NCBI GenBank assembly: GCA_963695335.1
Contig: OY968764.1
Location: 640,001 to 704,000, forward strand
DNA from: an uncultured bacterium
GTDB taxonomy: Bacteria > Babelota > Babeliae > Babelales > Vermiphilaceae
Length of the DNA stretch: 64,000 nucleotides
Direction of reading: 5' to 3'
The translations under genes were made by a program, and so were the position numbers. Below are positions 7,097 through 62,470 of the stretch, piece after piece. The stretch's first letter is position 1, and every line of letters starts with the position of its first letter. The notes beneath the pieces are model-generated. The model had not been told where the DNA came from and did no database searches. It saw only the letters and a list, made by a program, of their open reading frames with translations.

Positions 7097-9404
<2,308 letters not shown>

Positions 9405-10046: not shown

Positions 10047-10137
10047 TCGTTCGTATCCTTCGACAGGCTCAGGACGAACGGAAAGCTGAAATTTTTATGA
10101 CCCCGTTCGCATTGAGCTTGTCGAAATGAGCGAACGA
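10047..10137. repeat. Palindromic REP-like repeat, family A
   Basis: tcgttcgtatccttcgacaggctcaggacgaacgg...ccgttcgcattgagcttgtcgaaatgagcgaacga long imperfect inverted repeat. Confidence 0.9.
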
Positions 10138-10172
10138 ATATTACTTATAATACTTTACTTTAGGCCTGCTGT

Positions 10173-36801: not shown

Positions 36802-37860
36802 ATGTATAATTATATCGTTAAGTTGTATTTTTTCGCGCTCGTCCTGAACTTGTTGAAGGATTTCTTCGAGCGCTCAAAGATATCCTTCGACAGGCTCAGG
36901 ACGAGCGCAGGAAAGAAAGTTTTTCTTGCAATGATTGTTGGAATGTATTGTGTGCAAAGCGTGCGTCCAATGGAGCCTGAAAAGTGGAATGGTGATACAA
37001 AAAATGATGTTGCAATAGAGATGTATCATTTTTGGTCCAATGATTATAATCAAAATATCAATAATATAAAGAATGTTGATTTAAAAGAAATTCGGTCAAC
37101 TTTAAATAAAGAAGATTTTTTATCCAGTTCTGATGATACATTAAAGCATCTCTTGTATCTTTCTACGATACGTAAAAATGACGATAAAACGCTTTTTACG
37201 CAAAAACAACAGAATAAGTTTGATGCAGCTTTTAAAACAAAACAATCTGTTCCTATGTGGTTTGGTATTAACGGAGCAGTTATTGTTGGTACATCACTTT
37301 TGCCATGTATTAATTTTACTGGTTTATTACAATGTTCAAATGCAACATTAGTTGGGTGTTTATCTCAACTTGTTACTATCACAACGCCAACAGTAGCTTC
37401 TGTGGCAGGAGCTCTTACTGTGGGGTTTGTGTCTTTATATGCTACGGGACTTTCGCCTGATTATTCTTCTCGTAAAGCAAATAAAGTGCAAGATGAAATA
37501 GGTCATTTGCGTACAAATTATGCAACAATAGCCAAATATTGGATTGATATTTATTTTAAATATCCAGAAAAAGCCCAGTACATTGCTCAAAAAATTGATA
37601 TTGAAGCGTTGAGAACAAGGGCGCAATTAAAAACGCATAAAAAGAGAAGTGGCAGCTCTTTGGTGACTCCTCTTGAAGAAGCATGGCATTTTATTACGCA
37701 TAAGACTGTTCTGATAACATTTACGGAAATTGAAAATTACCTTTATAATAAGATGCATAGCCAAGATATCGATCTTTTTAAGAGACGAATTGAATCCCTT
37801 GAAAGCATTATTTATCAACAAAATGCAGAAATACAAAAATTGAAACAAGAAAAAATATGA
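36802..37860 (+). CDS. Hypothetical exported/membrane protein with in-frame palindromic repeat near the N-terminus
   Basis: GAGGGG RBS before ATG 36802; two TM segments; coiled C-terminus. Confidence 0.65.
   Translation: MYNYIVKLYFFALVLNLLKDFFERSKISFDRLRTSAGKKVFLAMIVGMYCVQSVRPMEPEKWNGDTKNDVAIEMYHFWSNDYNQNINNIKNVDLKEIRSTLNKEDFLSSSDDTLKHLLYLSTIRKNDDKTLFTQKQQNKFDAAFKTKQSVPMWFGINGAVIVGTSLLPCINFTGLLQCSNATLVGCLSQLVTITTPTVASVAGALTVGFVSLYATGLSPDYSSRKANKVQDEIGHLRTNYATIAKYWIDIYFKYPEKAQYIAQKIDIEALRTRAQLKTHKKRSGSSLVTPLEEAWHFITHKTVLITFTEIENYLYNKMHSQDIDLFKRRIESLESIIYQQNAEIQKLKQEKI
36835..36908. repeat. Palindromic repeat, family A (compact 74-bp form); contains two empty IS110 target sites
   Basis: gcgctcgtcctgaacttgttgaagga...tccttcgacaggctcaggacgagcgc. 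Confidence 0.9.
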
Positions 37861-39999: not shown

Positions 40000-40012
40000 T
40001 TTGGTAAAATTC

Positions 40013-41080
40013 ATGAAAAATATAAACATCATTTTTTTGTTACTTATCAGTAATGTAATTATCGGAATGGAAGCTGAACGTAAAAGTTTGGCTTCCTTTT
40101 TTTGTGTTGAGAAATGTGTGCAAAATGAAGACATTTGTACAGTAGTTGCGCAGCAGCATGTGTCCGATCAGAAATGGTGGTATATGGATAAAGAAATTCA
40201 GTATATCAACCAAGGTTGTTTAGATGCATCGTATCAGAAAAAAAACAGTTTTGCTTTTGTGCATTTTAATAAAGCCTGTACAGAAATAATAATTTTTCCC
40301 GGGGGTATTGGGGATTGTTTTATATGTGTGTGTGATAGAAAAAGCGGAAAGGAACGGGAGCGTATTTTTTTTGAAGATTATAATGAGGTCAATTTTTCTT
40401 ACCCTCAAATATGGGCGGATAGACTTTATTCCTCAACTCGTGCTCCTCAGGTCAGTTATAATGAGGGTTTATGGTGTGGTGAGTATTCTTTTTGTGAAGA
40501 ATCTGGAGGATTGAAGGAGGCTCTTGTAGTAGTAAAGCGTGAATATATGTGTGGTCGTGTAACAAATATTAATGAATCCAAAGCTTGTGTGTGGGATAGA
40601 ATAGAAGGAAAGGAATCATTACAGCTTGTGCATGATGGTCCAGTTAATATGGCACATTTTAATCCGCAAGGTATAGAAATAATAACGGCATCAGATGATT
40701 GTACAATGCGTTTATGGCATAGCAAAACAGGGCAAGAGTTGTTGCGTATCGCATATGGTACCTGTGTTCAGTCAGCATGGTTTAATGAGATGGGAACGGA
40801 AATGGTGGTTGCAACCGATGATGGTAACATACAAATTTTTGCGCAGTATAAGACTGATAATTTGCCACAAGTCTTGCTGAAAAAATTATTGCATCTATGG
40901 TTGCAATTGCAAAAGCCAAGTAAAAAAATTGATTCACCTGAAAAATTATTAGATAATGTTGCTCAATTGTTATCGTGTGATAAGAATGAAATGAATATAA
41001 CATGGCAATCGTTTCCAAAACATATGCAGAAAGCGATGTGGTTATCGATGCATAATAAGATTCAGAAATATGGAAAGTAA
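40013..41080 (+). CDS. Secreted WD40 protein (type 1)
   Basis: Signal peptide; HDGPVNMAHFNPQGIEIITASDDCTMRLW; paralog of 42976-44064. Confidence 0.8.
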   Translation: MKNINIIFLLLISNVIIGMEAERKSLASFFCVEKCVQNEDICTVVAQQHVSDQKWWYMDKEIQYINQGCLDASYQKKNSFAFVHFNKACTEIIIFPGGIGDCFICVCDRKSGKERERIFFEDYNEVNFSYPQIWADRLYSSTRAPQVSYNEGLWCGEYSFCEESGGLKEALVVVKREYMCGRVTNINESKACVWDRIEGKESLQLVHDGPVNMAHFNPQGIEIITASDDCTMRLWHSKTGQELLRIAYGTCVQSAWFNEMGTEMVVATDDGNIQIFAQYKTDNLPQVLLKKLLHLWLQLQKPSKKIDSPEKLLDNVAQLLSCDKNEMNITWQSFPKHMQKAMWLSMHNKIQKYGK

Positions 41081-41095
41081 ACATAAAGAGCAATA

Positions 41096-41824
41096 ATGAA
41101 GTATGCATATTTAGTTTTTTTGATGAGTATTAGCAACGGTTTTTTATTTTCTATGGAAATGGACTTTGCATCTAGAGATAAAATATGGCGGGTTGATAGA
41201 GAGATTCAGTGTGAGAAGTTGCCTACTTCTTATCGTGGTCAAGAATATTCATTTAAAGATTGGTTGAGATTTATACATTTTAGTAAAAATGGTACAGAGA
41301 TTATAGGGTGGAATCGTGGATTTCCTCTTTGTCTTGTATGGGATAGAAAGAGTGGAATATTGTTAGCGCGGGTCGAAGATGCCACTGCTAATAATCCTGT
41401 ATTTGACGAACCAAGATGGAAAGATAGATTGCCTGAACCACATTTTCCTAAGGAATATCCTGAAGGGTGGAAGAAAGATTTTAATGATTATGACTTAGAA
41501 GAAGAGTCAGAAACTTTGGTGTTAGCAACTAAGAACAAAGAATACCAAGTTTGTGTGTGGGATAAAAGAGAAAAAAGAGAGACATTGCAGCTTGTGCATG
41601 AGAATAGAGTGAATCAGGCACATTTTAATAGAAAAGGTATAGAAATAATCACAGCATCGCAAGATGGTACAATGCGTTTGTGGCATTCACAGACAGGGCA
41701 AGAGTTGTTGCGTATGAATCATGCCTCAAATGTAACAGATGCAGAATTTAATGAAATGGGAACGGAAATAGTTGTTGCAAGAGAAGATGGTAAGATACAA
41801 ATTTTAGTACAAGAAGTTAAATAA
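41096..41824 (+). CDS. Secreted WD40 protein (short type 2)
   Basis: HENRVNQAHFNRKGIEIITASQDGTMRLW; paralog of 44061-44840. Confidence 0.8.
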   Translation: MKYAYLVFLMSISNGFLFSMEMDFASRDKIWRVDREIQCEKLPTSYRGQEYSFKDWLRFIHFSKNGTEIIGWNRGFPLCLVWDRKSGILLARVEDATANNPVFDEPRWKDRLPEPHFPKEYPEGWKKDFNDYDLEEESETLVLATKNKEYQVCVWDKREKRETLQLVHENRVNQAHFNRKGIEIITASQDGTMRLWHSQTGQELLRMNHASNVTDAEFNEMGTEIVVAREDGKIQILVQEVK

Positions 41825-41829
41825 AATTC

Positions 41830-42948
41830 ATGAAAAATATAAACATCATTTTTTTGTTACTCATCAACAATCTTATTAATGCAATGGAAGTGGTTTCTGT
41901 ACCTGCAAATTTCCCTGTTGACTGCAGAAACAGAATCCTTTTTTTTGAGCTTGCTCAAAACAGTCATAACTATGTTGATAAATATGCTGGTGGTGATTCT
42001 GTTAACTTTTCTGGTACTTTTGTTTCTAAAGGAAAGGGTTCTTATGACCCTTTGAGCGAAGTAAGACGTATTCTTTGTAAGATAAGTTGTCTCAATTGGG
42101 AATGGTATGAAAAGCTTGATCAACAGAGGAATAATCCTGTTGCTGCGCGTACTATGATGCAAAATATTGGCATTACTTGCTATTCAAATTTTTTTGGCAA
42201 TAACAGATCTCCTTTTATATCGTATATTGTTAATCGATTTTGTACTCTAGGTGCACAAAAATGCCGTGAATTGAGCTGTCAGTTGTATGATAAAGATCTT
42301 AGTCCAGAAAAAGTTGAGCAATTATATAAAGAAGGAGCTGTTCTTGATTATTGGAATAGAGGACCAAAGGAGACTGTTCTTCGTTATTGGATTATAAAAA
42401 ATGATAAGAATAGTATAGAAATTGTGGAAAAGCTTTTACAATTAGGTGCAAATCCTGATGCTTATTATGAAGAGAGTAATTATTCTCCTCTACCACTAGT
42501 TGTGTGTAATAATAATGTTGATGTAGTTAAATTGTTATTGAGTTATAAAGCAAGAAAGCAATGGTATTGGGTTTTTCGAGACCAGCCTCCTAAATGTATT
42601 GATCTTTTTATTGATTATTCCACAAAAGATGAACTTACTGATGGATTAATTGCTTGTGTTAGATGCAGGGATTATTTACCAGAAATTATGCAGAAATTGA
42701 TTGATAAGGGAGCAAACCCGAGCGCTGCACTCCCTTATGTTTTTACATCTATGATAGAGAATGTTGGTAAATCTACACCTGATCATGATGCATTTAGACA
42801 ATTACGCGTACAAGTGTATGATTTTCTTTGCGCTCAACAAGCGTATGATGCAGAGGTCTACAATAAGATACAAAATCTACAGGAGTTTTTGAGTTCTCTG
42901 GTCAATAAACTTGAACAAAATAAACCGATTTTTGATGATGGTATTTAG
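41830..42948 (+). CDS. Secreted ankyrin-repeat-like protein
   Basis: IVEKLLQLGANPD, SPL..V....VDVVKLLLSY, KLIDKGANP. Confidence 0.75.
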   Translation: MKNINIIFLLLINNLINAMEVVSVPANFPVDCRNRILFFELAQNSHNYVDKYAGGDSVNFSGTFVSKGKGSYDPLSEVRRILCKISCLNWEWYEKLDQQRNNPVAARTMMQNIGITCYSNFFGNNRSPFISYIVNRFCTLGAQKCRELSCQLYDKDLSPEKVEQLYKEGAVLDYWNRGPKETVLRYWIIKNDKNSIEIVEKLLQLGANPDAYYEESNYSPLPLVVCNNNVDVVKLLLSYKARKQWYWVFRDQPPKCIDLFIDYSTKDELTDGLIACVRCRDYLPEIMQKLIDKGANPSAALPYVFTSMIENVGKSTPDHDAFRQLRVQVYDFLCAQQAYDAEVYNKIQNLQEFLSSLVNKLEQNKPIFDDGI

Positions 42949-42975
42949 TGATGATTATTCAAAAGGGAGAAAATA

Positions 42976-44064
42976 ATGAAGAGTATGAAAGTTATTTTTT
43001 TGTTATTCGTGAGTAATCTAATTTTTCCCATGGAAGCTGAACGTAAAAGTTTGGCTTCCTTTTTTTGTGTTGAGCAATGTGTGCAACATCAAGATATTTC
43101 TCAGCATATTTCGCGGCACTGTTTGTCTGATCAGAAGTGGTGGTATGTGGATAAAGAGATTCAGTTTTATGGTTTTAAGCATCATAATAGTTATCATCCA
43201 ATTTTGGGCAGATATCCAAATTATTTAAGATGTGTCTGTTTTGATAGTGCTGGCACAAACATAATAGCTTTTCCTAATGAAGGATGGGGTGATCTTGCAT
43301 GCATATGGAATAGGGATGGAAAAGAGCTAGAGCGCTTAGATCAGGATGCTTTGTATACATTTTGTGACAGCAATGATCAATGGGCAAGTGAATTATATAA
43401 TTCAGGCAATAGTCCTTGGAAGCATGAGTATGCAAAGGATATGCAAAAGTTATTGGATGAGCAATTTGATTTGGCTTCCATGATATGCTGGAATGATGGA
43501 CAGGCTTTTGTGGCATCACAATTTAAAGCATATGGTTGTTGTAGAGTGCATGCTTGGAATCAAAAAGAAAATAAAATATTATTTACCATTCATCATCAAA
43601 ATCTTATTAATTCAGTGGCATTCAATCCACAGGGCATAGAAATGATAACGGCATCATCAGATAAAAGTATGCGTTTGTGGAACAAAAAAACTGGACAACA
43701 ATTATTGCGTATTAATTATGATACGCGTCTTACATCAGCAAGTTTTAATGGGTTGGGAACAGAAATGGTAGTTGCAACAGATGATGGTAACATACAAATT
43801 TTTGCAAAGTATTGTATAGATAATTTGCAGCACATATTATTGAAAAAACTGTTGCATCTATGGTTACAGTTGCAAATGCCAAATAAAGAAATTGATTCAC
43901 CTGAAAAATTATTAGATATTGTTGGGTGCATGTTGCACTGCAATTACGATGAAATAAAAGAAGCATGGCAATCATTTCCAGAGCATATGCAGAATGCTAT
44001 CTGGTTATCAATGCATAAAAAGATTCAGAGATATGGAATAATAAAAGAAGAGGAAAGTGTATGA
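42976..44064 (+). CDS. Secreted WD40 protein (type 1)
   Basis: HQNLINSVAFNPQGIEMITASSDKSMRLW; MEAERKSLASFFCVE shared with 40013. Confidence 0.8.
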   Translation: MKSMKVIFLLFVSNLIFPMEAERKSLASFFCVEQCVQHQDISQHISRHCLSDQKWWYVDKEIQFYGFKHHNSYHPILGRYPNYLRCVCFDSAGTNIIAFPNEGWGDLACIWNRDGKELERLDQDALYTFCDSNDQWASELYNSGNSPWKHEYAKDMQKLLDEQFDLASMICWNDGQAFVASQFKAYGCCRVHAWNQKENKILFTIHHQNLINSVAFNPQGIEMITASSDKSMRLWNKKTGQQLLRINYDTRLTSASFNGLGTEMVVATDDGNIQIFAKYCIDNLQHILLKKLLHLWLQLQMPNKEIDSPEKLLDIVGCMLHCNYDEIKEAWQSFPEHMQNAIWLSMHKKIQRYGIIKEEESV

Positions 44065-44840
44065 ACTGTAAGAATATTATTTTTTTGTTACTTGCGAGTA
44101 ATCTGATTGTTGCGATGGAGCCTGAACATAAAAGTTTTGCTATAACATATCATGAGAAATCTGATAAGCAATGGCGGATGGATAAAGAGATTCAGTTTAA
44201 TACTGAAAAAAAGGATATTCCAAAATTGATACGACATAAAAATGGTTTGAGAAGTGTATGTTTTGATCCCACCGGTAAAAAGATATTAGCTTTTCCTTGG
44301 CATGCCGATTGCTTTGTATGTATATGGGATAGAGATGGAAAAGCGTTGGAATCCTTAGATTTTGACGCTTTTGATCAATTTTCTGAAAATAATAGTGAAT
44401 GGTCTGATAGATTATTGAGTTCAGGTAATTCCCCTGCTTTTCCAATCTATGAAGGTGATGATAGACAGTTATTGGAAAAAGAATTTGGTTGGTTGCCAAT
44501 GGTATGTTTTAATGAAGAACAAGTTTTTGTAGTGCCAAAGTTTAGGGTGTATGGTGGTCATAATGCGTACGCATGGAATCGCTCAGAACAGAAAAGATTG
44601 TTTAGTCTTAAGCATACAGACATAATCTATTCTATAGATTTTAATCCAAAGGGCATAGAAATAATAACTGCATCAGCAGATAAAACTGTGCGTTTGTGGG
44701 ATGCAAAAACAGGTAAAGAATTAGTATGCATTGGTTATGATACACGTGTTACATCTGCAAGTTTTAATCAAGATGGTACAGAGATAGTTGTTGCAACGGA
44801 TGATGGTAAAATACGAGTTTTGGTACAAGATAATAAATAA
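44061..44840 (+). CDS. Secreted WD40 protein (short type 2)
   Basis: HTDIIYSIDFNPKGIEIITASADKTVRLWD. Confidence 0.8.
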   Translation: MNCKNIIFLLLASNLIVAMEPEHKSFAITYHEKSDKQWRMDKEIQFNTEKKDIPKLIRHKNGLRSVCFDPTGKKILAFPWHADCFVCIWDRDGKALESLDFDAFDQFSENNSEWSDRLLSSGNSPAFPIYEGDDRQLLEKEFGWLPMVCFNEEQVFVVPKFRVYGGHNAYAWNRSEQKRLFSLKHTDIIYSIDFNPKGIEIITASADKTVRLWDAKTGKELVCIGYDTRVTSASFNQDGTEIVVATDDGKIRVLVQDNK

Positions 44841-44864
44841 GTTGTTGATATAAAGTAAAAAATA

Positions 44865-44955
44865 TGAGTTTGTATGTTTCGACAAGCTCAACACGAACGG
44901 AGAAAAAAAATATTTAATCCCGTTCGTGCTGAGCCTGTCGAAGTATACGAACTCA
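44865..44955. repeat. Palindromic REP-like repeat, family A
   Basis: tgagtttgtatgtttcgacaagctcaacacgaacgg...ccgttcgtgctgagcctgtcgaagtatacgaactca. Confidence 0.9.
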
Positions 44956-44978
44956 TTAGGTTTAATAGGATTTGTAGA

Positions 44979-46061
44979 ATGCACAAATTATTAACATCAT
45001 TATTATGTGCCGTTATTTTCACTTGTTCTGTTATTGGAATGGAAAAAGAAATATCAGTTCCTGCAAATTTTCCTGATGATTGTAAAAATAAAATATTGAT
45101 TGATTATCTTGTTAAAGATGTTCATAAGCAAATCAAAAATTTTCATAAAGATAGTTGTTATTGTTTTGGTTATAGCGTTGATCAGGTTTGTAGGTTAGCA
45201 GGGCGCCTCATTGTGAGAATTAGTCGCATCAATTGGGATTTTTATAAGATACTGGAAAAAGAAAGAAATGATCCTGTTGCCACTCGTACTATGCTTAAAA
45301 ATATTGTATCTACCTATTATCCAAATCATGAAGGCACTGAATTAGAGATGGTTCATTGGTTTAAGAGTCCTGGGGCACAAAAATGCATTAGATTGAGTAA
45401 TCAATTATTTTTGACTGGAATGACTCCAGAAAAAATTGAACAGTTATATAATGAGGGTGCCTTTCTTAATTATTATGATAGCTATAATTATGTTGATCCT
45501 AGTAAAGAGACGGTTCTGAGTTATTGGGTTGATTGTGGGGCTCAAGAAAGTGACATTATTGTTGAAAAACTTCTTCAGTTGGGAGCAAATCCTAATCTTA
45601 GTGAAGGATATACTTCTTTTCCTTTGATTAAGGCAATGCGAAGGAATAGCATTGAAAAAATTAAATTATTACTGAGCTATAAGGCAAAAAAAGAGTGGTA
45701 TAATGTGTTGTCATGTATATTGTATCATCGTTATATTGATACGATTATTGCTTATTGCACCAAAGATGAGCTTAATGATGGATTGGTTGCTTGTGTTGAT
45801 GCATATGCTTATCGACCAGAAATTATGCAAAAATTGATTGATAATGGAGCAGAACCTAGCGCTGCGCTGCCTCATGTATTAAAAAATATAATTGAAAAAG
45901 TTGATATATTGGATTCAGATAATTCGGCAGTACTCAATTTCAATTTCCTTTGTAATCAAGGAGCATATGATCAAACTGTTTTTGATAAGGTGAAAAATTT
46001 ACAAATAATTTTTGGTGCTCTTGCCAATAATCTTGAAAAGAATAAAGTATTAGAAACTTAA
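44979..46061 (+). CDS. Secreted ankyrin-repeat-like protein
   Basis: Signal peptide from ATG 44979; VPANFP.DC and IVEKLLQLGANP shared with 41830. Confidence 0.75.
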   Translation: MHKLLTSLLCAVIFTCSVIGMEKEISVPANFPDDCKNKILIDYLVKDVHKQIKNFHKDSCYCFGYSVDQVCRLAGRLIVRISRINWDFYKILEKERNDPVATRTMLKNIVSTYYPNHEGTELEMVHWFKSPGAQKCIRLSNQLFLTGMTPEKIEQLYNEGAFLNYYDSYNYVDPSKETVLSYWVDCGAQESDIIVEKLLQLGANPNLSEGYTSFPLIKAMRRNSIEKIKLLLSYKAKKEWYNVLSCILYHRYIDTIIAYCTKDELNDGLVACVDAYAYRPEIMQKLIDNGAEPSAALPHVLKNIIEKVDILDSDNSAVLNFNFLCNQGAYDQTVFDKVKNLQIIFGALANNLEKNKVLET

Positions 46062-49473: not shown

Positions 49474-49647
49474 AGCGCTCGAAGATATCCTTTAACCCCA
49501 ACAATCGTTACACTCTTATTGGGGACCCCGATTGGAACGGAGTGAAAATTGGGGTAAAAGATATCCTTCAACCTGTCTTCGCCAAGGCTTCGGCAGGCAC
49601 GGCAAGTTCTTAAGACAGGTGTTTACTAGTGAGCCTGTCGAACTATC
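49474..49647. repeat. Nested palindromic repeat cluster (family A host with family C, family D and a further insert)
   Basis: agcgctcgaagatatcctt; C unit 49496-49554; D unit 49572-49602; actagtgagcctgtcgaacta at about 49625-49645. Confidence 0.8.
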
Positions 49648-49664
49648 AGCGATTATGATCAAAG

Positions 49665-50630
49665 TCAAGTAGAATAGGCATTTTTATTAGGTGCCCACTT
49701 TCTATTTTCAGTAAGAAGAACATTAGCAAGTATAATAAACTTGCGCATTACAGCAATTAGGGCAATCTTAGATGGTTTTCCTTCTTCACGTAATCGCTCA
49801 TAAAATTTCTTAAAATCTGGATTATGTTGAACAGCTGAAAGTGTAGGCATATACAGCATTTTTCGTGGTAAGGATCTACCTTCTCTAATGATAGATTTTT
49901 TCTTATAATTACCACTTTCATTGGTGTATGGAGCTACGCCTAATAAGGCTGCAACTTGCTTATTTCCAATACTTCCTAATTCAGAAAAAAAAGCAATTAA
50001 CGTTGCTGATGTTCCTTTTCCAGCACCAGGAATTGATGTGATAATATTTTGCTTATGTTTCCAGTCATCATCATTATCAATTAATTGTTCTATTTCTTTT
50101 TCCAATTCCTTAACTTGTTCATCCATAAAATCAATATGTTGTTGAATTTTGTCTTTACAAAATTCAACTTGTGGATGAGCCAATCGTGTTTTTTCTCGAC
50201 TGATCATTCCCGTCAAATCACTTTTCCTTCTTATTAAAGCTTTCAATAATTCTTCATTCTCTTTTGGCACTTTAATGCGTGTTTCCTCTGATAATTCTTT
50301 TTGTTGTGCAAACAAAGCAATCATAGATGCATCAATCTTGTCTGTTTTTGCTTTTGCTCCATCTGATGCGATAAACGACTTAATTCGTTTCGGCTCAATT
50401 AGCCATACAAAATATCCAGCATTACTTAATGTACGAATCAATAATTTTTCGTATCCACCAGATGATTCACATACAACGCGAACAACATTGTACTCAGAAA
50501 ATACATTAAGTATTTTATTGAGACCAGCGGCGCTATTTGGCGTTTTAAAATATTGATTCAATGGACGTAAAAAAACATCCAAATTATCTTTTGAAATATC
50601 GACACCAACAAATATTTCTGTTAGCTTCAT
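49665..50630 (-). CDS. IS110 family DEDD transposase/recombinase
   Basis: VGVDISK (D), CESSGGYE (E), KTDKIDA (DD); C-terminal SIPGAG...LGVAP..NESG with putative catalytic Ser. Confidence 0.95.
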   Translation of the reverse strand: MKLTEIFVGVDISKDNLDVFLRPLNQYFKTPNSAAGLNKILNVFSEYNVVRVVCESSGGYEKLLIRTLSNAGYFVWLIEPKRIKSFIASDGAKAKTDKIDASMIALFAQQKELSEETRIKVPKENEELLKALIRRKSDLTGMISREKTRLAHPQVEFCKDKIQQHIDFMDEQVKELEKEIEQLIDNDDDWKHKQNIITSIPGAGKGTSATLIAFFSELGSIGNKQVAALLGVAPYTNESGNYKKKSIIREGRSLPRKMLYMPTLSAVQHNPDFKKFYERLREEGKPSKIALIAVMRKFIILANVLLTENRKWAPNKNAYST

Positions 50631-50808
50631 AGTAATTCTTCCTCATAATACGAGCCTTGCGCTCAAGCGATTATTCGAATCTTCTACAAATCTGGTTGAT
50701 AGCTCTTTAGCTGAAAACGGTTCTTGTAACCTAGGACGAGCACAAGACGCTATCAACCTTTTTTTATAGCCTAGTTTCCTAAACCTAAAAAACTCAATAA
50801 TCTACATG
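50631..50808 (-). ncRNA. Predicted bridge RNA of the IS110 element
   Basis: 5' hairpin; target loop closed by GGTTGATAGC/GCTATCAACC carrying GCTCGTCCT and TTCAG; donor loop carrying ATAATCGCT and TATGAG; exact ends inferred. Confidence 0.85.
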
Positions 50809-50855
50809 CTTTTATCATATGAGGACGAGCGCGAGAAAGGATTGGATTTAAAGTG

Positions 50856-50892
50856 TATGCGGTGAAGAAAATTTTTTTTCACCGCATATTTA
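50856..50892. terminator. topA terminator hairpin
   Basis: tatgcggtgaa/ttcaccgcata. Confidence 0.7.
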
Positions 50893-53142
50893 TTATTTTG
50901 CAGATGTATAACCGCACTCTTTATTCAAACAAACAAGCGTAGTTTCACCTTCTTTATTTGTTTTTTTAACTAAGAACGGCCACTTACATTTTGGACATTT
51001 CTTTTCTTCGATAGGGTCAAAGATTGCAAATTTACATTTTGGATATCCAGCACAGCCCCAGAATTTGCCGCCCCGCCATGCGCGTTCAATAATTTCATCA
51101 CCACTTTCCGGGCAATGGAACGGTAATGTTTTACGTTCAACGTATTTGCAATCAGGGTACCCTGAGCATGCAACAAAATCACCGTACTTACCTTTAAGTT
51201 GGCGTAACTGTTTGCCGCACGTTGGGCATTGTTTATCAAGCAGTTTTGGTGCTTCATGTTCTTTTAGTTCAATTTTGCCATGTTCGTCACGTGCAAAATT
51301 AGAAGTAAACGTACATTCAGGAAATCCAGTACAACCTAAAAACTCACCAGCTTTGCCAAAACGGATTGCCAATTTATGTTTGCCACATTGTGGGCAGATC
51401 ATATCAATTTCAACCGCTTTTTTGCCACCATCTTTGCCAGCAAACGCTTCTAAATCTTTTTCAAATGTTTCATGGAAACTTCTGAGTAATGTGTCGCGCT
51501 CAAGCTCACCTTCTGCAATTTTATCAAGCTCTTCTTCCATACGTGCAGTGAATTTGGGGCTCATGAGTTCTGGTAAATTTTTAACCAACATTTCTGTTAC
51601 GGTCATACCCAATTCTGTTGGTACAAATTTCTTTTTTTCAAGATTTGTATATGCACGTGCGCGGATAGTATTAAGAACTGCCACGTAGGTACTTGGTCGG
51701 CCAATACCTTCTTTTTCTAACTCTTTAACAAGTGAAGCTTCAGTAAATCGTGCAGGTGGTTGTGTGAAATGTTGCTTAGGATCAATCTTTTTAAGATCAA
51801 CATTGTTTTTTGCTTTAATGTCAGCAGGCAGCGTAACTTTATCTTCTTTTTCGCCTTCTTCCTCTTCTTGATATACAAGTAAGAAGCCATCAAAGATAAG
51901 CGTTGAGCCAGTGACTTTGAATGTATAAATACCACCTTTAATCACTACTTGGCGCTGTGCATATTCAGCCGGTTTCATTTGGCATGCAACAAATCGTTTC
52001 CAAATAAGATCATATAGTTTTGCTTCATCAGCAGGGATATACGGTCTTACTTTGTCAGGTGTAAGGGTAATATTAATTGGTCTAATTGCTTCATGGGCAT
52101 CTTGTGTTTTACCTTTTGATTTTTTTTCAAACATGTTCGCTTTTGCAGGTAAATAATCAGCAGGAAAATTCTTGTTGATATATGAACGTACTTGCGTCAT
52201 TGCCGTATCAGAGATACGTAATGAGTCTGTACGCATATAGGTGATTAATGCCACAGGAGTAGAGGCATCTGTAAGCGGTAAACCTTCATACAGATGTTGC
52301 GCAAGTTGCATTGTTTTTTTAACAGAAAACCCAAGTAAGTTGTATGCTGCTTGTTGCAAGGTACTGGTCATAAATGGAGGCAGTGGATTTCTGGTGCGGG
52401 TTTTATCAGTTATTGAATCGATCGCATAATTTTCATTTTTGAGCGCTTCAATAACCTTTTTTGCCGTTTTTTCATCTTTAATTTCTGCTTTTTCTTTGCC
52501 AATATTAGTGAGCGGTGCAGCAATTGTTGCTTTGTTGTGTGCAAAGTTACCGGTGATACTCCAGTATTCTTCGGGAACAAAGTTGCGGATTGCAGTTTCA
52601 CGATCACAGATCATGCGCAATGCTACTGATTGCACGCGTCCAGCAGAAAGACCTTTTGCTATTTTGCGCCATAAAATAGGAGAAACTTCATAACCTACCC
52701 AGCGGTCTAAAACTCTGCGTGCTTGCTGAGCTTCTACTAATTTTATATTAATTTCACCAGGTTTGTTAATAGCTTCTAAAATGGCAGGTTCGGTAATTTC
52801 GTTAAAAGCGATTCGGTATGTTTTTGTGCCTTTTTTGGCGACTTTATTAATTTCTTGTGCAATGTGCCATCCAATAATTTCCCCCTCACGGTCAGGATCG
52901 GGAGCTATATAAATGGTATCGCAGGTGGATGCTTGTTTACAGATGCCGGCGATAGTTGCTTCTTTACCTTCTAAGGTAACGTATTCAAGGTGGATACCTT
53001 TTTTATCCATGGTGACGCCGATAGATTTTGCAGGAAGATCTTTAATATGCCCCATGGTGGACATGATCACAAAATCTTTGCCGAGAAACTTTGCAATGGT
53101 TTTAATTTTTGCTGGTGACTCAACGATGATTAACTTTTTCAT
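50893..53142 (-). CDS. topA: DNA topoisomerase I with C-terminal Zn ribbons
   Basis: LIIVESPAK, DPDREGE, SAGRVQS, ITYMRTDS, QDAHEAIRP, GIGRPSTY, C4 repeats. Confidence 0.97.
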   Translation of the reverse strand: MKKLIIVESPAKIKTIAKFLGKDFVIMSTMGHIKDLPAKSIGVTMDKKGIHLEYVTLEGKEATIAGICKQASTCDTIYIAPDPDREGEIIGWHIAQEINKVAKKGTKTYRIAFNEITEPAILEAINKPGEINIKLVEAQQARRVLDRWVGYEVSPILWRKIAKGLSAGRVQSVALRMICDRETAIRNFVPEEYWSITGNFAHNKATIAAPLTNIGKEKAEIKDEKTAKKVIEALKNENYAIDSITDKTRTRNPLPPFMTSTLQQAAYNLLGFSVKKTMQLAQHLYEGLPLTDASTPVALITYMRTDSLRISDTAMTQVRSYINKNFPADYLPAKANMFEKKSKGKTQDAHEAIRPINITLTPDKVRPYIPADEAKLYDLIWKRFVACQMKPAEYAQRQVVIKGGIYTFKVTGSTLIFDGFLLVYQEEEEGEKEDKVTLPADIKAKNNVDLKKIDPKQHFTQPPARFTEASLVKELEKEGIGRPSTYVAVLNTIRARAYTNLEKKKFVPTELGMTVTEMLVKNLPELMSPKFTARMEEELDKIAEGELERDTLLRSFHETFEKDLEAFAGKDGGKKAVEIDMICPQCGKHKLAIRFGKAGEFLGCTGFPECTFTSNFARDEHGKIELKEHEAPKLLDKQCPTCGKQLRQLKGKYGDFVACSGYPDCKYVERKTLPFHCPESGDEIIERAWRGGKFWGCAGYPKCKFAIFDPIEEKKCPKCKWPFLVKKTNKEGETTLVCLNKECGYTSAK

Positions 53143-53806: not shown

Positions 53807-53931
53807 ACCCTTCGATACATTCTCTTCCGCAAAGCTACAGAGAACACTCAGGGCGAGCGGTGGGAGGTGCAATAAGTTATTTTCTTCCGCTCGTCCTGAG
53901 TGTTTTTGCTTGCAAAAATGTATCGAAGGGT
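53807..53931. repeat. Palindromic repeat, family B
   Basis: acccttcgatacat...cactcagggcgagcgg...ccgctcgtcctgagtg...atgtatcgaagggt. Confidence 0.9.
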
Positions 53932-57513: not shown

Positions 57514-58796
57514 AATTACATGTATCAAGTATGATGATTACTAAATTTATTAAATCAGTTAGAGCACCTCTCACCGCTCGCCCTGAGTGTTTTACGAAGC
57601 GTAGCGTAGTAAAATGTATCGAAGGGTGCAAAAATCAAAAGTTATTGTTATGTCGCATCCTGCGATACATTTTTGAAGACAAAAACACTCAGGACGAGCG
57701 GAGGGTAAGCAAGTGTATTTTTGTAGTCACCATTTTTATGACATCTTTCTTTACCCATCCTTTCTCCTACGATTCCGCAATTTATAAAGCTCAAAAGGGC
57801 AATTGGCAAGATGCGCACAGTGCATTAAGCAGTATTATTACGGATAATCCTGATAGAGCAGATGTTATGTATGATGCAGGAGTTGCTGCATATAATCTTG
57901 GCAACAAATGTCAGGCAGCAACTTGTTTTGCGCGTGCAGCTGAATGTAGTGCTGATAAAAATATTGCGTTTTGTGCTCATTTTAATGCGGGCAATACATA
58001 TGTTGATGAAAAAGAATTAGAACAAGCGCTTGTAGAATATGATAAAGCGCTTGCAATAGAATCTGATAATGAGTATGCGCGTCATAATCGTGATCGTGTT
58101 GCGCAGATGTTACAAGAGCAGGAAAAACAGCAAGAGAATAAGCAAGATGATCAGCAGCAGAATAAAGATCAAGAAAAAAATGAACAAAACCAGGATGACA
58201 AGCAAGATCAGGATAAGCAGCAAAAAGATAAGCAAGATGGACAGCAAGACAGCCAAGATTCCTCCTCCGCTGAAGCTTCGGCGGACAGGCAAAACCAAAA
58301 GCAAAATGGTAATGATAAAAAAGATGGTCAACAAAACCAAAACGGCAACGACACGCAAAATGAAAAAAACGACTCATCGCAAGATGAATTGTCAAATAAG
58401 CAATCCCAAGGTGATAGCGATCAAAGAGACGCTGCAAACAACAGCAAAGACACACAGCGACAAGAGTATGGGAAGAATAAAAAAGAGCGCCATCAAAATT
58501 CCACCAATGATAAGAAGGGGGATGGTAAAAATGAGTTTGATAAACAATCGCAAGATGCACAAAAAGAGGGCAATGAGCAACAAAGAGATAAACATGGAAC
58601 AACTCCTGGTCAACAAAATATAAGTGATGATAAAGATAATCTATCAGCGCAAGAGGGTCAAGAGCAAGCGATCACTGATCCATGGCTTTTGAGAATTCTG
58701 AATGATCAGGAAATGCTTGATAAGACAGTTAATAAACAGTTAATGGAAGCAAAAATTCGTCAACATGGTGGAAAAAATGGTCAAAATTGTTGGTAA
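57510..58796 (+). CDS. batC: BatC-like TPR protein with Q/D/K-rich tail
   Basis: TPR (AHFNAGNTY..ALVEYDKAL), low-complexity tail, C-terminal W; ATGA overlap with batB stop. Confidence 0.75.
   Translation: MKLHVSSMMITKFIKSVRAPLTARPECFTKRSVVKCIEGCKNQKLLLCRILRYIFEDKNTQDERRVSKCIFVVTIFMTSFFTHPFSYDSAIYKAQKGNWQDAHSALSSIITDNPDRADVMYDAGVAAYNLGNKCQAATCFARAAECSADKNIAFCAHFNAGNTYVDEKELEQALVEYDKALAIESDNEYARHNRDRVAQMLQEQEKQQENKQDDQQQNKDQEKNEQNQDDKQDQDKQQKDKQDGQQDSQDSSSAEASADRQNQKQNGNDKKDGQQNQNGNDTQNEKNDSSQDELSNKQSQGDSDQRDAANNSKDTQRQEYGKNKKERHQNSTNDKKGDGKNEFDKQSQDAQKEGNEQQRDKHGTTPGQQNISDDKDNLSAQEGQEQAITDPWLLRILNDQEMLDKTVNKQLMEAKIRQHGGKNGQNCW
57574..57701. repeat. Palindromic repeat, family B, in-frame in batC
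   Basis: ccgctcgccctgagtg...tgtatcgaagggtgc...gcatcctgcgatacat...cactcaggacgagcgg. Confidence 0.9.
58261..58289. repeat. Short GC-rich hairpin, family D, in-frame in batC
   Basis: cctcctccgctgaagcttcggcggacagg; similar to 49572-49602. Confidence 0.65.
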
Positions 58797-61190: not shown

Positions 61191-62369
61191 ATGATTAAAC
61201 GTTTTTCTATTGTGCATTCGGTACTGTTTAGTGTGTGTATAAGTATCATGATGATTCTCATGATACTTCTTTTTATTGAATATCGTTTTTTTTGCAAACA
61301 AGCGCGGGAAATGGTTGAGCTTAAACAGCAGTATGCTGTGTATGTTGCTTTATTTAATCAACGTTTATATCCCGATGATTCTTGTCTATATTCCAATGAT
61401 CCTAGTAGCGCTCGCCCTGAACTTGTTGAAGGGTATCTTGGAGCACTCGAAGATATCCTTTTTCCCCAGTTTTCGTTTCACTCCAAACCGGGGTCCCCGT
61501 CTGAAGGAACTGAAGATGGGGTTAAACAGGCTCAGGGTGAGCGCGGGGTGACAAGTGACGATTTTGATGCTTCATCTTTTGACCGGGTCCCCGATCGAAA
61601 CGATAGTGAAGATTGGGGTGGAGTTGATGAATCATCAATTTCCATGGATGAAATTCTTGCCGCAGAAGCCAGCGACGCACCAGATGATGACGATGATTAT
61701 GTAGATGATTCTTTTGTGGTAATTAATAGGCAACCTGAATACCTTAAGCAATCAACATTTGATTATATGCAGGCACAAGAACTTAATTCATTAATGACAG
61801 CAATTGATGTTGATCGTTGGTCTGATTATACTGAATCATCTTCACGCCCAGTTATATCTGCACCAACAAAAAAACCTACTGCACAAAATAAGCGTGTTAC
61901 TAAACCTGTAACTAAGCCCAAACAGCATATTACAGTGCAACGTTCGTTTAAAGATTGTGGATTTATTTTACCGATTGATGCAGGTAAATTTTGGTTGAGT
62001 TCACTGTTTGGTCCACGTAAACGTGTTGACGGAACATGGGGATTTCATCATGGCATTGATATGGCGGCTGTAAAAGGTACGCCTGTAAAAGTAGCACGAG
62101 CGGGAACGGTTGTAGAAGCTGGTTTTCAGACAGGATACGGTAATACCGTTGTTGTGCAGCATTCTGATGCATTAAAAACACGCTATGCTCATTTGCATAC
62201 CATTCGTGTATATATGGGACAAAAGATAAAACAAGGTATTATTGTGGGGACGGTGGGAGAAACAGGATTTATTAGAAAAAAAGGAAAAGACGGTTCACAT
62301 TTGCATTTTGAAGTGTATGAAAAAGGTAAGCGAGTGAATCCTATGCATTGTTTACCAAGAGCAGTATAA
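61191..62369 (+). CDS. M23 family metallopeptidase with repeat-derived linker insertions
   Basis: HHGIDMAA..GTPV, GYGN.VVVQH, YAHL, HLHFEV. Confidence 0.92.
   Translation: MIKRFSIVHSVLFSVCISIMMILMILLFIEYRFFCKQAREMVELKQQYAVYVALFNQRLYPDDSCLYSNDPSSARPELVEGYLGALEDILFPQFSFHSKPGSPSEGTEDGVKQAQGERGVTSDDFDASSFDRVPDRNDSEDWGGVDESSISMDEILAAEASDAPDDDDDYVDDSFVVINRQPEYLKQSTFDYMQAQELNSLMTAIDVDRWSDYTESSSRPVISAPTKKPTAQNKRVTKPVTKPKQHITVQRSFKDCGFILPIDAGKFWLSSLFGPRKRVDGTWGFHHGIDMAAVKGTPVKVARAGTVVEAGFQTGYGNTVVVQHSDALKTRYAHLHTIRVYMGQKIKQGIIVGTVGETGFIRKKGKDGSHLHFEVYEKGKRVNPMHCLPRAV
61408..61544. repeat. Family A repeat with nested family C unit, in-frame in M23 gene
   Basis: Matches 36835-36908 with 63 extra bp containing cccc..ggggtcccc..gggg (61464-61521). 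Confidence 0.9.
61581..61618. repeat. Partial family C unit, in-frame in M23 gene
   Basis: gggtccccgatcgaaacgatagtgaagattgggg. Confidence 0.7.
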
Positions 62370-62470
62370 TCCTTCGATACATTTTTGAAGACAAAAACAC
62401 TCAGGATGACCGGAAGATAATGATGATTCCCGCTCGCCCTGAGTGCCCCGTTAGGGGTGTATCGAAGGGT
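62369..62470. repeat. Palindromic repeat, family B
   Basis: atccttcgatacatttttgaagacaaaaacactcagga...ccgctcgccctgagtg...tgtatcgaagggt. Confidence 0.9.

Follow-up and report, generated by a model that had tools for sequence, protein, structure and literature searches.

The 64,000-nucleotide stretch of DNA analysed here (positions 640,001 to 704,000 of contig OY968764.1 from an uncultured Babeliales bacterium; referred to below as the window) carries on its minus strand an insertion sequence (IS) of the IS110 group. Judging from its sequence and by analogy with IS621 of Escherichia coli, we consider it very likely that this element is intact, probably still active, and works as an IS621-type bridge recombinase, in which an RNA encoded in the left end would guide the enzyme to the genomic target and to the element's own ends. 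The anatomy of the element, its conservation, the covariation of the RNA region, the use of targets and the conservation of the catalytic residues were all observed directly. On sequence grounds the element has every feature of the IS110 group, and it is a further example of the known bridge-recombinase system rather than a new kind of system. A first-pass annotation of the window had proposed an IS621-type arrangement of guides (left and right target guides, LTG and RTG, and left and right donor guides, LDG and RDG) with a CT core; the protein domains, the covariation of the RNA and the agreement of the guides with the DNA of each element, described below, supported this arrangement. Statements on IS621 are based on two publications (Durrant et al. 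2024, PMC11208160; Hiraizumi et al. 2024, PMC11208158).

An intact IS110-group element in three identical copies

The boundaries of the element and its gene are as follows.

49648..50823, minus strand: whole IS110-group element including one CT core per junction; the boundaries are shared by three identical copies
50823-50822 and 49649-49648, minus strand: left and right core CT; the interior, 49650-50821, is 1,172 bp
49665..50630, minus strand: recombinase gene, 321 amino acids (aa), with a RuvC-like DEDD domain, a coiled coil and a Tnp domain (Pfam and structure homologues)

The element is 1.17 kb in size and occurs three times in the genome, which is assembled as one contig of 1,366,684 bp with a G+C content of 35.7%. 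All 1,172 internal bases agree between the three copies (100% identity), as do the end points. Both sides of the element are bounded by the same 2-nt CT core, and terminal inverted repeats are absent. Read along the minus strand, the end of the topoisomerase I gene (topA) and its terminator are followed by the flank GCGCTCGTC, the CT core, a left end of 191 nt (50821-50631) without a long reading frame, the open reading frame (ORF) of 321 codons, 15 nt past the stop codon (17 with the CT core) that end in ATAATCG, the second CT and the flank GATAGTTCGACAGG... A long left end that holds the RNA region and a right end of 15 nt led us to assign the element to the IS110 group and to exclude the IS1111 group.

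The recombinase matched two Pfam families above their cut-offs, PF01548 (DEDD_Tnp_IS110; 6e-22, 78.5 bits) and PF02371 (Transposase_20; 1e-16, 61.1 bits), and its best relatives of solved structure were the transposases of ISCro4 (PDB 9t56; 1e-41) and IS621 (8wt6; 7.5e-40). Residues D11, E55, D97, D100 and S239 align with the catalytic residues D11, E60, D102, D105 and S241 of IS621 (PMC11208158); the deposited IS621 chain appears to be numbered 2 higher, since all five positions then agree. The five residues are invariant across an alignment of 47 homologues. The first-pass annotation had called the protein intact and compact: the open frame and the five catalytic residues bear out the first adjective, whereas 321 aa is an ordinary size for the family (the chains solved for IS621 and ISCro4 have 328 and 341 residues).

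The distribution of the recombinase is patchy. It was present in one of 30 other related genomes (43% identity) and was not found in any of the ten same-genus genomes searched. Among the loci compared, the nearest relatives, from Dependentiae/Babeliales and other uncultured bacteria, were 43-49% identical, and closer relatives (55-86% identity; P0002-P0016) came only from short metagenomic contigs and are unnamed proteins.

A predicted bridge RNA in the left end

The layout of the RNA, with the evidence on which each part was drawn, is given below.

50636..50808, minus strand: predicted bridge RNA (fold z = -4.5; covariance model R1; 5' end placed from the -10 box)
50768..50785, minus strand: predicted 5' hairpin, weak, 7 bp with several G-U pairs (minimum-energy fold)
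50694..50758, minus strand: target-binding loop (sequence reading and minimum-energy fold)
50758-50749 / 50703-50694, minus strand: outer stem of the target loop, a perfect 10-bp stem formed by GGTTGATAGC and GCTATCAACC
50747-50744 / 50707-50704, minus strand: second stem of the target loop
50733..50741, minus strand: LTG GCTCGTCCT, 7 nt plus CT, identical to left flank plus core (50830-50822)
50731-50719, minus strand: inner hairpin of the target loop, GGTT/AACC, separating LTG from RTG
50711..50715, minus strand: RTG TTCAG, the complement of CT plus GAA
50710, minus strand: handshake base C of the target loop, complementary to donor position 7 (G, 49650)
50635..50680, minus strand: donor-binding loop (consensus fold of seven orthologues)
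50680-50677 / 50638-50635, minus strand: closing stem of the donor loop
50666..50674, minus strand: LDG ATAATCGCT, identical to right end plus core (49656-49648)
50664-50652, minus strand: inner hairpin of the donor loop, GAGC/GCTC, separating LDG from RDG
50642..50647, minus strand: RDG TATGAG, the reverse complement of CT plus CATA at the left end
G50641 and A50640, minus strand: donor-loop handshake bases; C and T at target positions 7 and 6, as read in the flank GCTCGTC, are their complements

Read on the minus strand, every stem, guide and hairpin of the first-pass annotation proved correct to the base, and the 5' hairpin that it had listed was recovered in the minimum-energy fold in the weak form given above. 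The LTG matches 9/9 bases at all three copies of the element, and the RTG matches 5/5 (CTGAA) at the two other copies and 4/5 (CTGA) at the window copy. The LDG matches 9/9 and the RDG 6/6 bases of the element's own joined ends; the RDG overlaps the ribosome-binding site GAGGAAG. The RNA region is predicted to fold more stably than shuffled sequences (z = -4.7 and -4.5 in two runs, with none of 200 shuffles equally stable), and the minimum-energy fold of the window sequence alone recovers the target loop and the inner hairpin of the donor loop.

The frequency with which such matches arise in AT-rich sequence was estimated by shuffling the 191-nt left end 200,000 times at the mononucleotide level. 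The short guides taken alone are uninformative, as TATGAG occurred in 9% and TCAG in 46% of the shuffles, and this much would fit a purely accidental resemblance. The two 9-mers behave differently: 21 shuffles contained the left-flank 9-mer and 188 the right-end 9-mer, but none contained both, and none the ordered layout of four guides. Together with the prediction derived from the RNA, which held at two independent copies and across orthologues (see below), this result already refutes an accidental resemblance, which we regard as barely conceivable.

Covariation of the RNA across orthologues

Rfam 15, searched with the locus at permissive E-values and with the whole window at gathering scores, returned no bridge-RNA family but only sub-threshold chance matches, and therefore we built our own covariance model. 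Seeds were chosen by a scan of 129 related loci in which exact matches to all four guides were required. The scan gave full models in 15 loci, nine with a CT core and six with other 'cores' that we judged doubtful; since it was too strict, it was used solely for choosing seeds. The resulting model, R1, was built from an alignment (A2) of seven distinct elements, namely the window element and six orthologues. Their consensus fold has the textbook layout of a bridge RNA: one inner hairpin is enclosed by a second and an outer stem, and a further closing stem with its own inner hairpin follows. Compensatory change was seen in 20 of the 27 pairs of this fold.

R1, whose E-values are roughly calibrated, was run on 100 of 164 sources, leaving out duplicate copies from the same genome and loci L121-L163. 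It matched 82 of them, and 79 of the 82 matches end at most 45 nt from the start codon of the recombinase; the three exceptions were L110 (72 nt), L099 (no ORF assigned) and L079 (opposite strand). In the window the model gave a single match (50628-50767, 89.4 bits), and across the genome exactly three, one per copy of the element. In the 68 distinct orthologue rows of the alignment A3, 90.2% of the cells were paired and 26 of the 27 pairs showed compensatory changes, compared with 28-48% of the cells in slid controls, in which the partners were shifted by 1-3 columns; A3 was fitted to the model, so that the pairing percentages are inflated, a bias which the slid controls share only in part. 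In the same rows, the outer stem, second stem and inner hairpin of the target loop were paired in 96%, 87% and 77% of the cells, and the closing stem and inner hairpin of the donor loop in 93% and 99%. The bridge RNA that the first-pass annotation had read from the left end thus agrees both with the fold and with the purpose-built model.

The guides follow the DNA of each element

In orthologues the guides were compared with the flanks and ends of their own elements and, as a control, with those of others (cross-pairings). A fixed-column comparison was replaced by a register-free test because the register in which the model aligns the unstructured loops varies. In the fixed-column comparison the RTG and RDG were without signal (for the RTG, a mean of 2.13 vs 1.81 matches), and the row of the window was offset by one column; its 9-mer LTG test gave 11 zero-mismatch cases, two of which (L084 and L048) were self-matches at contig starts.

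All four guides exceeded the cross-paired controls by far; covariation between guides and flanks had been suggested as a check by the first-pass annotation. The 9-mer of the LDG was found within one mismatch just past the element's own stop codon in 43 of 57 elements (19 exact and 24 with one mismatch), compared with 7.9% of 2,560 cross-pairings. For the RTG, the 3' side of the target loop carried an unbroken complement of at least three right-flank bases past the core in 41 of 54 elements vs 2.2% of 2,828 cross-pairings; the complementarity beyond the core had a mode of 5, found in 25 of the 54. Uninterrupted identity to the LTG over at least five bases before the core was observed in 24 of 71 elements (2.5% of 5,074 cross-pairings), and the RDG matched the core plus 4 bases in seven of the 13 elements with a well-defined left boundary (2% of 150 cross-pairings). 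The LTG and RDG counts exclude L084, whose 'upstream' sequence is an indexing artefact. In 54 of 57 elements a right boundary could be set from the first seven bases of the LDG, with CT as the core in 48 of these 54.

The handshake base, defined in IS621 as the nucleotide after the right target guide (PMC11208158), behaved in the same way. In 39 of 41 orthologues, the base at this position of the target loop is Watson-Crick complementary to the last base of the right end (donor position 7), whereas 2,000 shuffles gave a mean of 19.1 and a maximum of 30.

Changes of the donor are coordinated with changes of both donor guides. The donor of the window element, ATAATCG-CT-CATA, goes with the guides ATAATCGCT and TATGAG; relatives with the donor ACAATCA-CT-TGTA have ACAATCACT and TACAAG, and others with ACAGT(C/T)G-CT-TGTA have ACAGT(C/T)GCT and GCAAG. 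The donor core region is flanked by ATA...TAT in the window element and by ACA...TGT in the relatives. The metagenomic relative L084, 49% identical to the window protein, has the same LDG and the same right end, ATAATCG-CT, and the right flank GAACTTGTT. Its longer RTG matches 8 bases, and for this reason the RTG of the window element looks shortened.

We also considered whether the repeats of the ends and flanks in the left end could be features of the DNA, for instance subterminal sites bound by a protein or relics of nested insertions, with no guide RNA involved. The matches were indeed found as identities of DNA. However, two of the four concern flanking DNA that varies from one orthologue to the next, with the loops varying accordingly, and the stems of the loops stay paired through compensatory changes (in the 26 of 27 pairs mentioned above). 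Moreover, the guides have the polarity required for strand-specific pairing of an RNA (reverse complements on the right-hand side, direct copies on the left), and the handshake base covaries with the other loop. We therefore regard an explanation at the level of DNA as most improbable, and a guide RNA as the better account of the left end.

Target sites in a family of hairpin repeats

The target of the window copy consists of two halves, to which we add the target of a longer guide.

50824..50832, minus strand: left half of the target, the hairpin-repeat head GCGCTCGTC, followed by the core (counts of GCTCGTCCTGA)
49560..49647, minus strand: right half of the target, variant repeat subfamily GATAGTTCGACAGGCTCACTAGTAAAC... 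(same-subfamily empty sites elsewhere)
CTGAACTTG: extended right target that a lengthened RTG would match

The genome contains 87 occurrences of GCTCGTCCT and 72 of the 11-mer GCTCGTCCTGA, which is followed by A in 14 cases, by G in 56 and by T in two. In the window, this 11-mer has 10 matches at no more than one mismatch, compared with 0.23 expected. Perfect empty sites, GCTCGTCCTGAA, occur 14 times genome-wide, and 13 of them read GAACTTGTTGAAGG. The repeat can form a hairpin, GCGCTCG-TCCT ... AGGA-CGAGCGC, whose stem has the CT crossover at its top; folded as DNA, it was modestly better than shuffles (z = -1.8). Two of the three copies of the element sit in AACTTG-type units and the third in a T-type unit, whereas all 56 G-type units are unoccupied.

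From the guides, the first-pass annotation had predicted the target GCTCGTC-CT-GAAC. Precisely these flanks were found at the two other identical copies, whose left side reads gcgctcgtcCT and whose right side reads CTgaacttgttgaagg. This agreement between the flanks of the other two copies and the RNA-predicted target also accounts for the fifth base of the RTG, which the flank of the window copy leaves unmatched. The right flank of the window copy reads CTGATAG, in line with the remark in the same annotation that only CTGA matches. Two T-type empty sites, GCTCGTCCTGAT followed by ...TTCG...CTCAG.AGTAAAC, resemble this flank (gatagttcgacaggctcactagtaaac). Since such same-subfamily empty sites exist elsewhere in the genome, the window copy is a plain insertion into a variant repeat subfamily; a rearrangement as the source of its right flank was ruled out on the same evidence. 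The window copy is thus a natural example of an insertion that tolerates a mismatch in the right target.

Expression and proposed mechanism

Two promoter elements were read at the ends of the element.

49663..49668, minus strand: putative -35 box TTGACT, located in the right end and sharing bases with the stop codon (across the junction of right end, CT core and left end)
50814..50819, minus strand: putative -10 box TATGAT in the left end, joined to the -35 box only after circularisation

Across the junction of the two ends they would form a promoter, TTGACT-17-TATGAT, identified as a sequence match, and the same arrangement can be read in the ends of orthologues. In IS621 a promoter is likewise formed at the circle junction (PMC11208160). 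Transcription starting about 7 nt past the -10 box would place the 5' end of the RNA near 50808. As a strong promoter would be present only in the excised circle, the RNA and the enzyme are expected mainly at that stage.

Transcription, binding of the RNA by the protein, formation of the circle and catalysis would, by analogy, proceed as in IS621. The 191-nt left end would yield an RNA of ~170 nt with two internal loops. The target loop would read the genomic target, with GCTCGTCCT pairing with the bottom strand of the left target and core and UUCAG with the top strand of the core and GAA. The donor loop would read the circle junction of the element, with AUAAUCGCU pairing with the right end and core and UAUGAG with the core and left end. 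Once the strands have been exchanged, the handshake base or bases after each right-hand guide may pair with the other DNA. The DEDD/serine recombinase of 321 aa, presumably a tetramer as in IS621, would exchange strands at the CT core, thereby placing the circular element in the head of a hairpin repeat of which the genome has dozens of copies.

Several observations weigh against this reading, apart from the inflated pairing percentages and the rough calibration of R1 mentioned above. In the minimum-energy fold of the single sequence the closing stem of the donor loop is not formed, and the LDG pairs with the 5' region instead. The RTG has just 5 nt, compared with 7 in most relatives, and the right flank of the window copy has a mismatch at right-target base 3. 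No sigma-70-like site was found upstream of the RNA in the integrated copy. An orthologous empty site was not found in the ten same-genus genomes, in all of which the 3' end of topA is present and the sequence downstream is non-syntenic. Finally, transcription, the ends of the RNA and activity are proposed by analogy.

Some of these points would also suit a genuine IS110 element with a bridge-RNA-like left end that is no longer mobile, its copies having been amplified recently and then silenced, for example because the RNA is not made in the host or because the short RTG cripples insertion. The lack of a promoter-like site upstream of the RNA in the integrated state, an RTG of 5 nt where relatives have a mode of 7, and the presence of just three copies while 14 perfect targets remain empty all point in this direction. 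On the other hand, no base differs between the three copies along their 1.17 kb, and the recombinase gene retains an open frame with every catalytic residue; moreover, IS621 works with an RTG of 4 bp, and a promoter present only in the circle is the normal state for the family (PMC11208160). We therefore consider silent copies an unlikely account and retain the reading of an element that is probably still active.

The hairpin repeat beyond this genome

The Chloroflexota relatives L047, L053 and L062 insert at GTTCG(T/C)C-CT-GAGCCTGTCG (also written GTTCG(T/C)C-CT-GAGCCTGTCGAAGG), which is the same position of a hairpin; the loop of that hairpin is nearly identical to the loop of the commonest repeat subfamily of this genome. 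The same hairpin, with covarying stems, was present in flanks from an Alphaproteobacteria metagenome-assembled genome (MAG), from other Babeliales-like MAGs and from metagenome contigs. The metagenomic relative with 49% identity (L084) has the same donor as the window element and nearly the same target. A text search of the literature did not find the 14-nt loop motif of the hairpin.

Conceivably, the lineage of these bridge elements is tied to one particular hairpin repeat as opposed to arbitrary sites, although we hold this to be doubtful. If it were true, a lineage of bridge IS would have co-evolved over a long time, or been transferred together, with a widespread hairpin that resembles repetitive extragenic palindromic (REP) sequences, and the hairpin could act as a structural gate for insertion, as proposed for ISPpu10.

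A number of further observations were made on this repeat. Nearly the same hairpin loop, CCTGAGC(C/T)TGTCGAAGG, occurs in flanks from Chloroflexota, Alphaproteobacteria and other MAGs (L053, 1039-2790; L056, 915-2564; L062, 1100-2626; L028, 28-50; L077, 2347; L087, 697-1018). These hairpins often form tandem arrays of ~62-83 nt, and IS110 relatives insert at the same position. The hairpin stems covary (TCGTCC/GGACGA, TCATCC/GGATGA and TCGTGC/GCACGA), with G-T wobbles on one strand.

Within this genome the repeats form a superfamily in which the head GCTCGTCCTGA is conserved and the bodies are of several types (AACTTGTTGAAGG, GCCTGTCGAAGG, GTGTTTTT...ATCGAAGG and T.CTTCG...AGTAAAC). Its units are often arranged head to head. 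Units in the window lie at 10054-10147, 36835-36923, 53848-53929, 57552-57702, 61408-61460 and 62369-62442, and there are ~72 sites genome-wide. An 85-nt repeat with GGGGACCCCG-type palindromes, present at 49474-49558 and 61442-61526 (71% identical), adjoins the hairpin repeats, and one of its copies sits just past the right flank of the IS.

Two same-genus genomes also carry related sequence downstream of topA. In G002 (L170, end of contig 28), the contig stops downstream of the topoisomerase orthologue at ...gcgctcgtcct, which corresponds to the left half-target plus core; this break in the assembly suggests a repeat or a copy of the IS at the same site. In G010 (L178), three tandem units of ~80 nt with gttcgtggtgatagttcgataaactcactagtaaacgc are present, related to the variant repeat in the right flank of the window copy and with a changed head (GTGGTGA vs GTCCTGA).

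Other features of the window

50893-53142: ORF of the topoisomerase I gene (topA), adjoining the left flank of the element
50855-50889: terminator hairpin of the topoisomerase I gene

The best named relatives of this topoisomerase, with 92%, 85% and 80% identity, are labelled Candidatus Babeliales, which places the host in the Dependentiae. Elsewhere in the window, positions 7489-8074 contain a long run of repeats with a 9-nt period, made of 23-30 overlapping copies of CCAGTTGCA-type units, which on the opposite strand would encode a collagen-like protein with Gly-X-Y repeats. Positions 40006-45909 contain a cluster of at least four diverged tandem paralogues (families D3-D8) with common 5' ends, ATGAAAAATATAAACATCATTTTTTTGTTAC..., that resemble signal peptides.

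Comparison with known systems

The element adds a cleanly readable natural bridge recombinase from the little-studied Babeliales/Dependentiae, which are parasites of protists. Its four guides, handshake bases, junction promoter and target family can all be read from a single genome, which makes it a ready candidate for a screen of orthologues and a compact teaching case. It may also point to an IS lineage linked to a hairpin repeat that recurs across phyla. Knowledge of the mechanism is unchanged. Since bridge RNAs are predicted in 85.7% of the IS110-group elements in ISfinder (PMC11208160), and thus already for most members of the group, the finding is what would be expected for an intact IS110 element. 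A text search of the literature did not find 'Dependentiae' and 'IS110' together, and the donor junction and target strings of the element were not found in the searchable part of the supplements of PMC11208160.

The closest parallel in mechanism is IS621. In sequence, the two elements share both protein domains and the five catalytic residues, a bridge-RNA region in the left end that precedes the gene, two loops in each of which a small hairpin splits the left guide from the right guide, the CT core, LTG and LDG of 9 nt, a short RTG (4 bp in IS621 and 5 in the window element), handshake bases, a promoter at the circle junction, and a target within a repeated extragenic hairpin element. IS110-family elements are also cited as targeting REP sequences (PMC11208160). 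According to the same source, extension of the natural 4-bp RTG of IS621 to 7 bp improves specificity, and some orthologues have longer RTGs. The differences are that the proteins are only distantly related (phmmer 7.5e-40 over residues 7-303) and that the window element has the donor ATAATCG-CT-CATA and the target GCTCGTC-CT-GAA, whereas the wild-type target of IS621 is ATCAGGCCTAC (PMC11208160). The RDG of IS621 pairs discontiguously, whereas that of the window element is one contiguous 6-mer. IS621 comes from E. coli, whereas the window element belongs to an uncultured Babeliales bacterium and is known from its sequence alone.

ISCro4 and other IS622-type enzymes (PDB 9t56; 10.1101/2025.05.14.653916) are bridge recombinases for genome engineering; they have the same order of domains as the window protein and provide its best structure match (1e-41), but belong to a different clade. 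In ISPpu10 of Pseudomonas putida, the stem-loop of the target is described as a second determinant of specificity (10.64898/2026.03.19.712850). Similarly, all insertions of the window element fall in copies of one conserved intergenic hairpin-forming repeat; a role of the hairpin in recognition would be conjectural here, and the fold of the DNA is only weakly above that of shuffles (z = -1.8). Finally, elements of the IS1111 group, with their seekRNA or bridge RNA, have a recombinase of the same family and follow the same RNA-guided logic, but differ from the window element in that the RNA lies in a long right end and the subterminal inverted repeats are longer.

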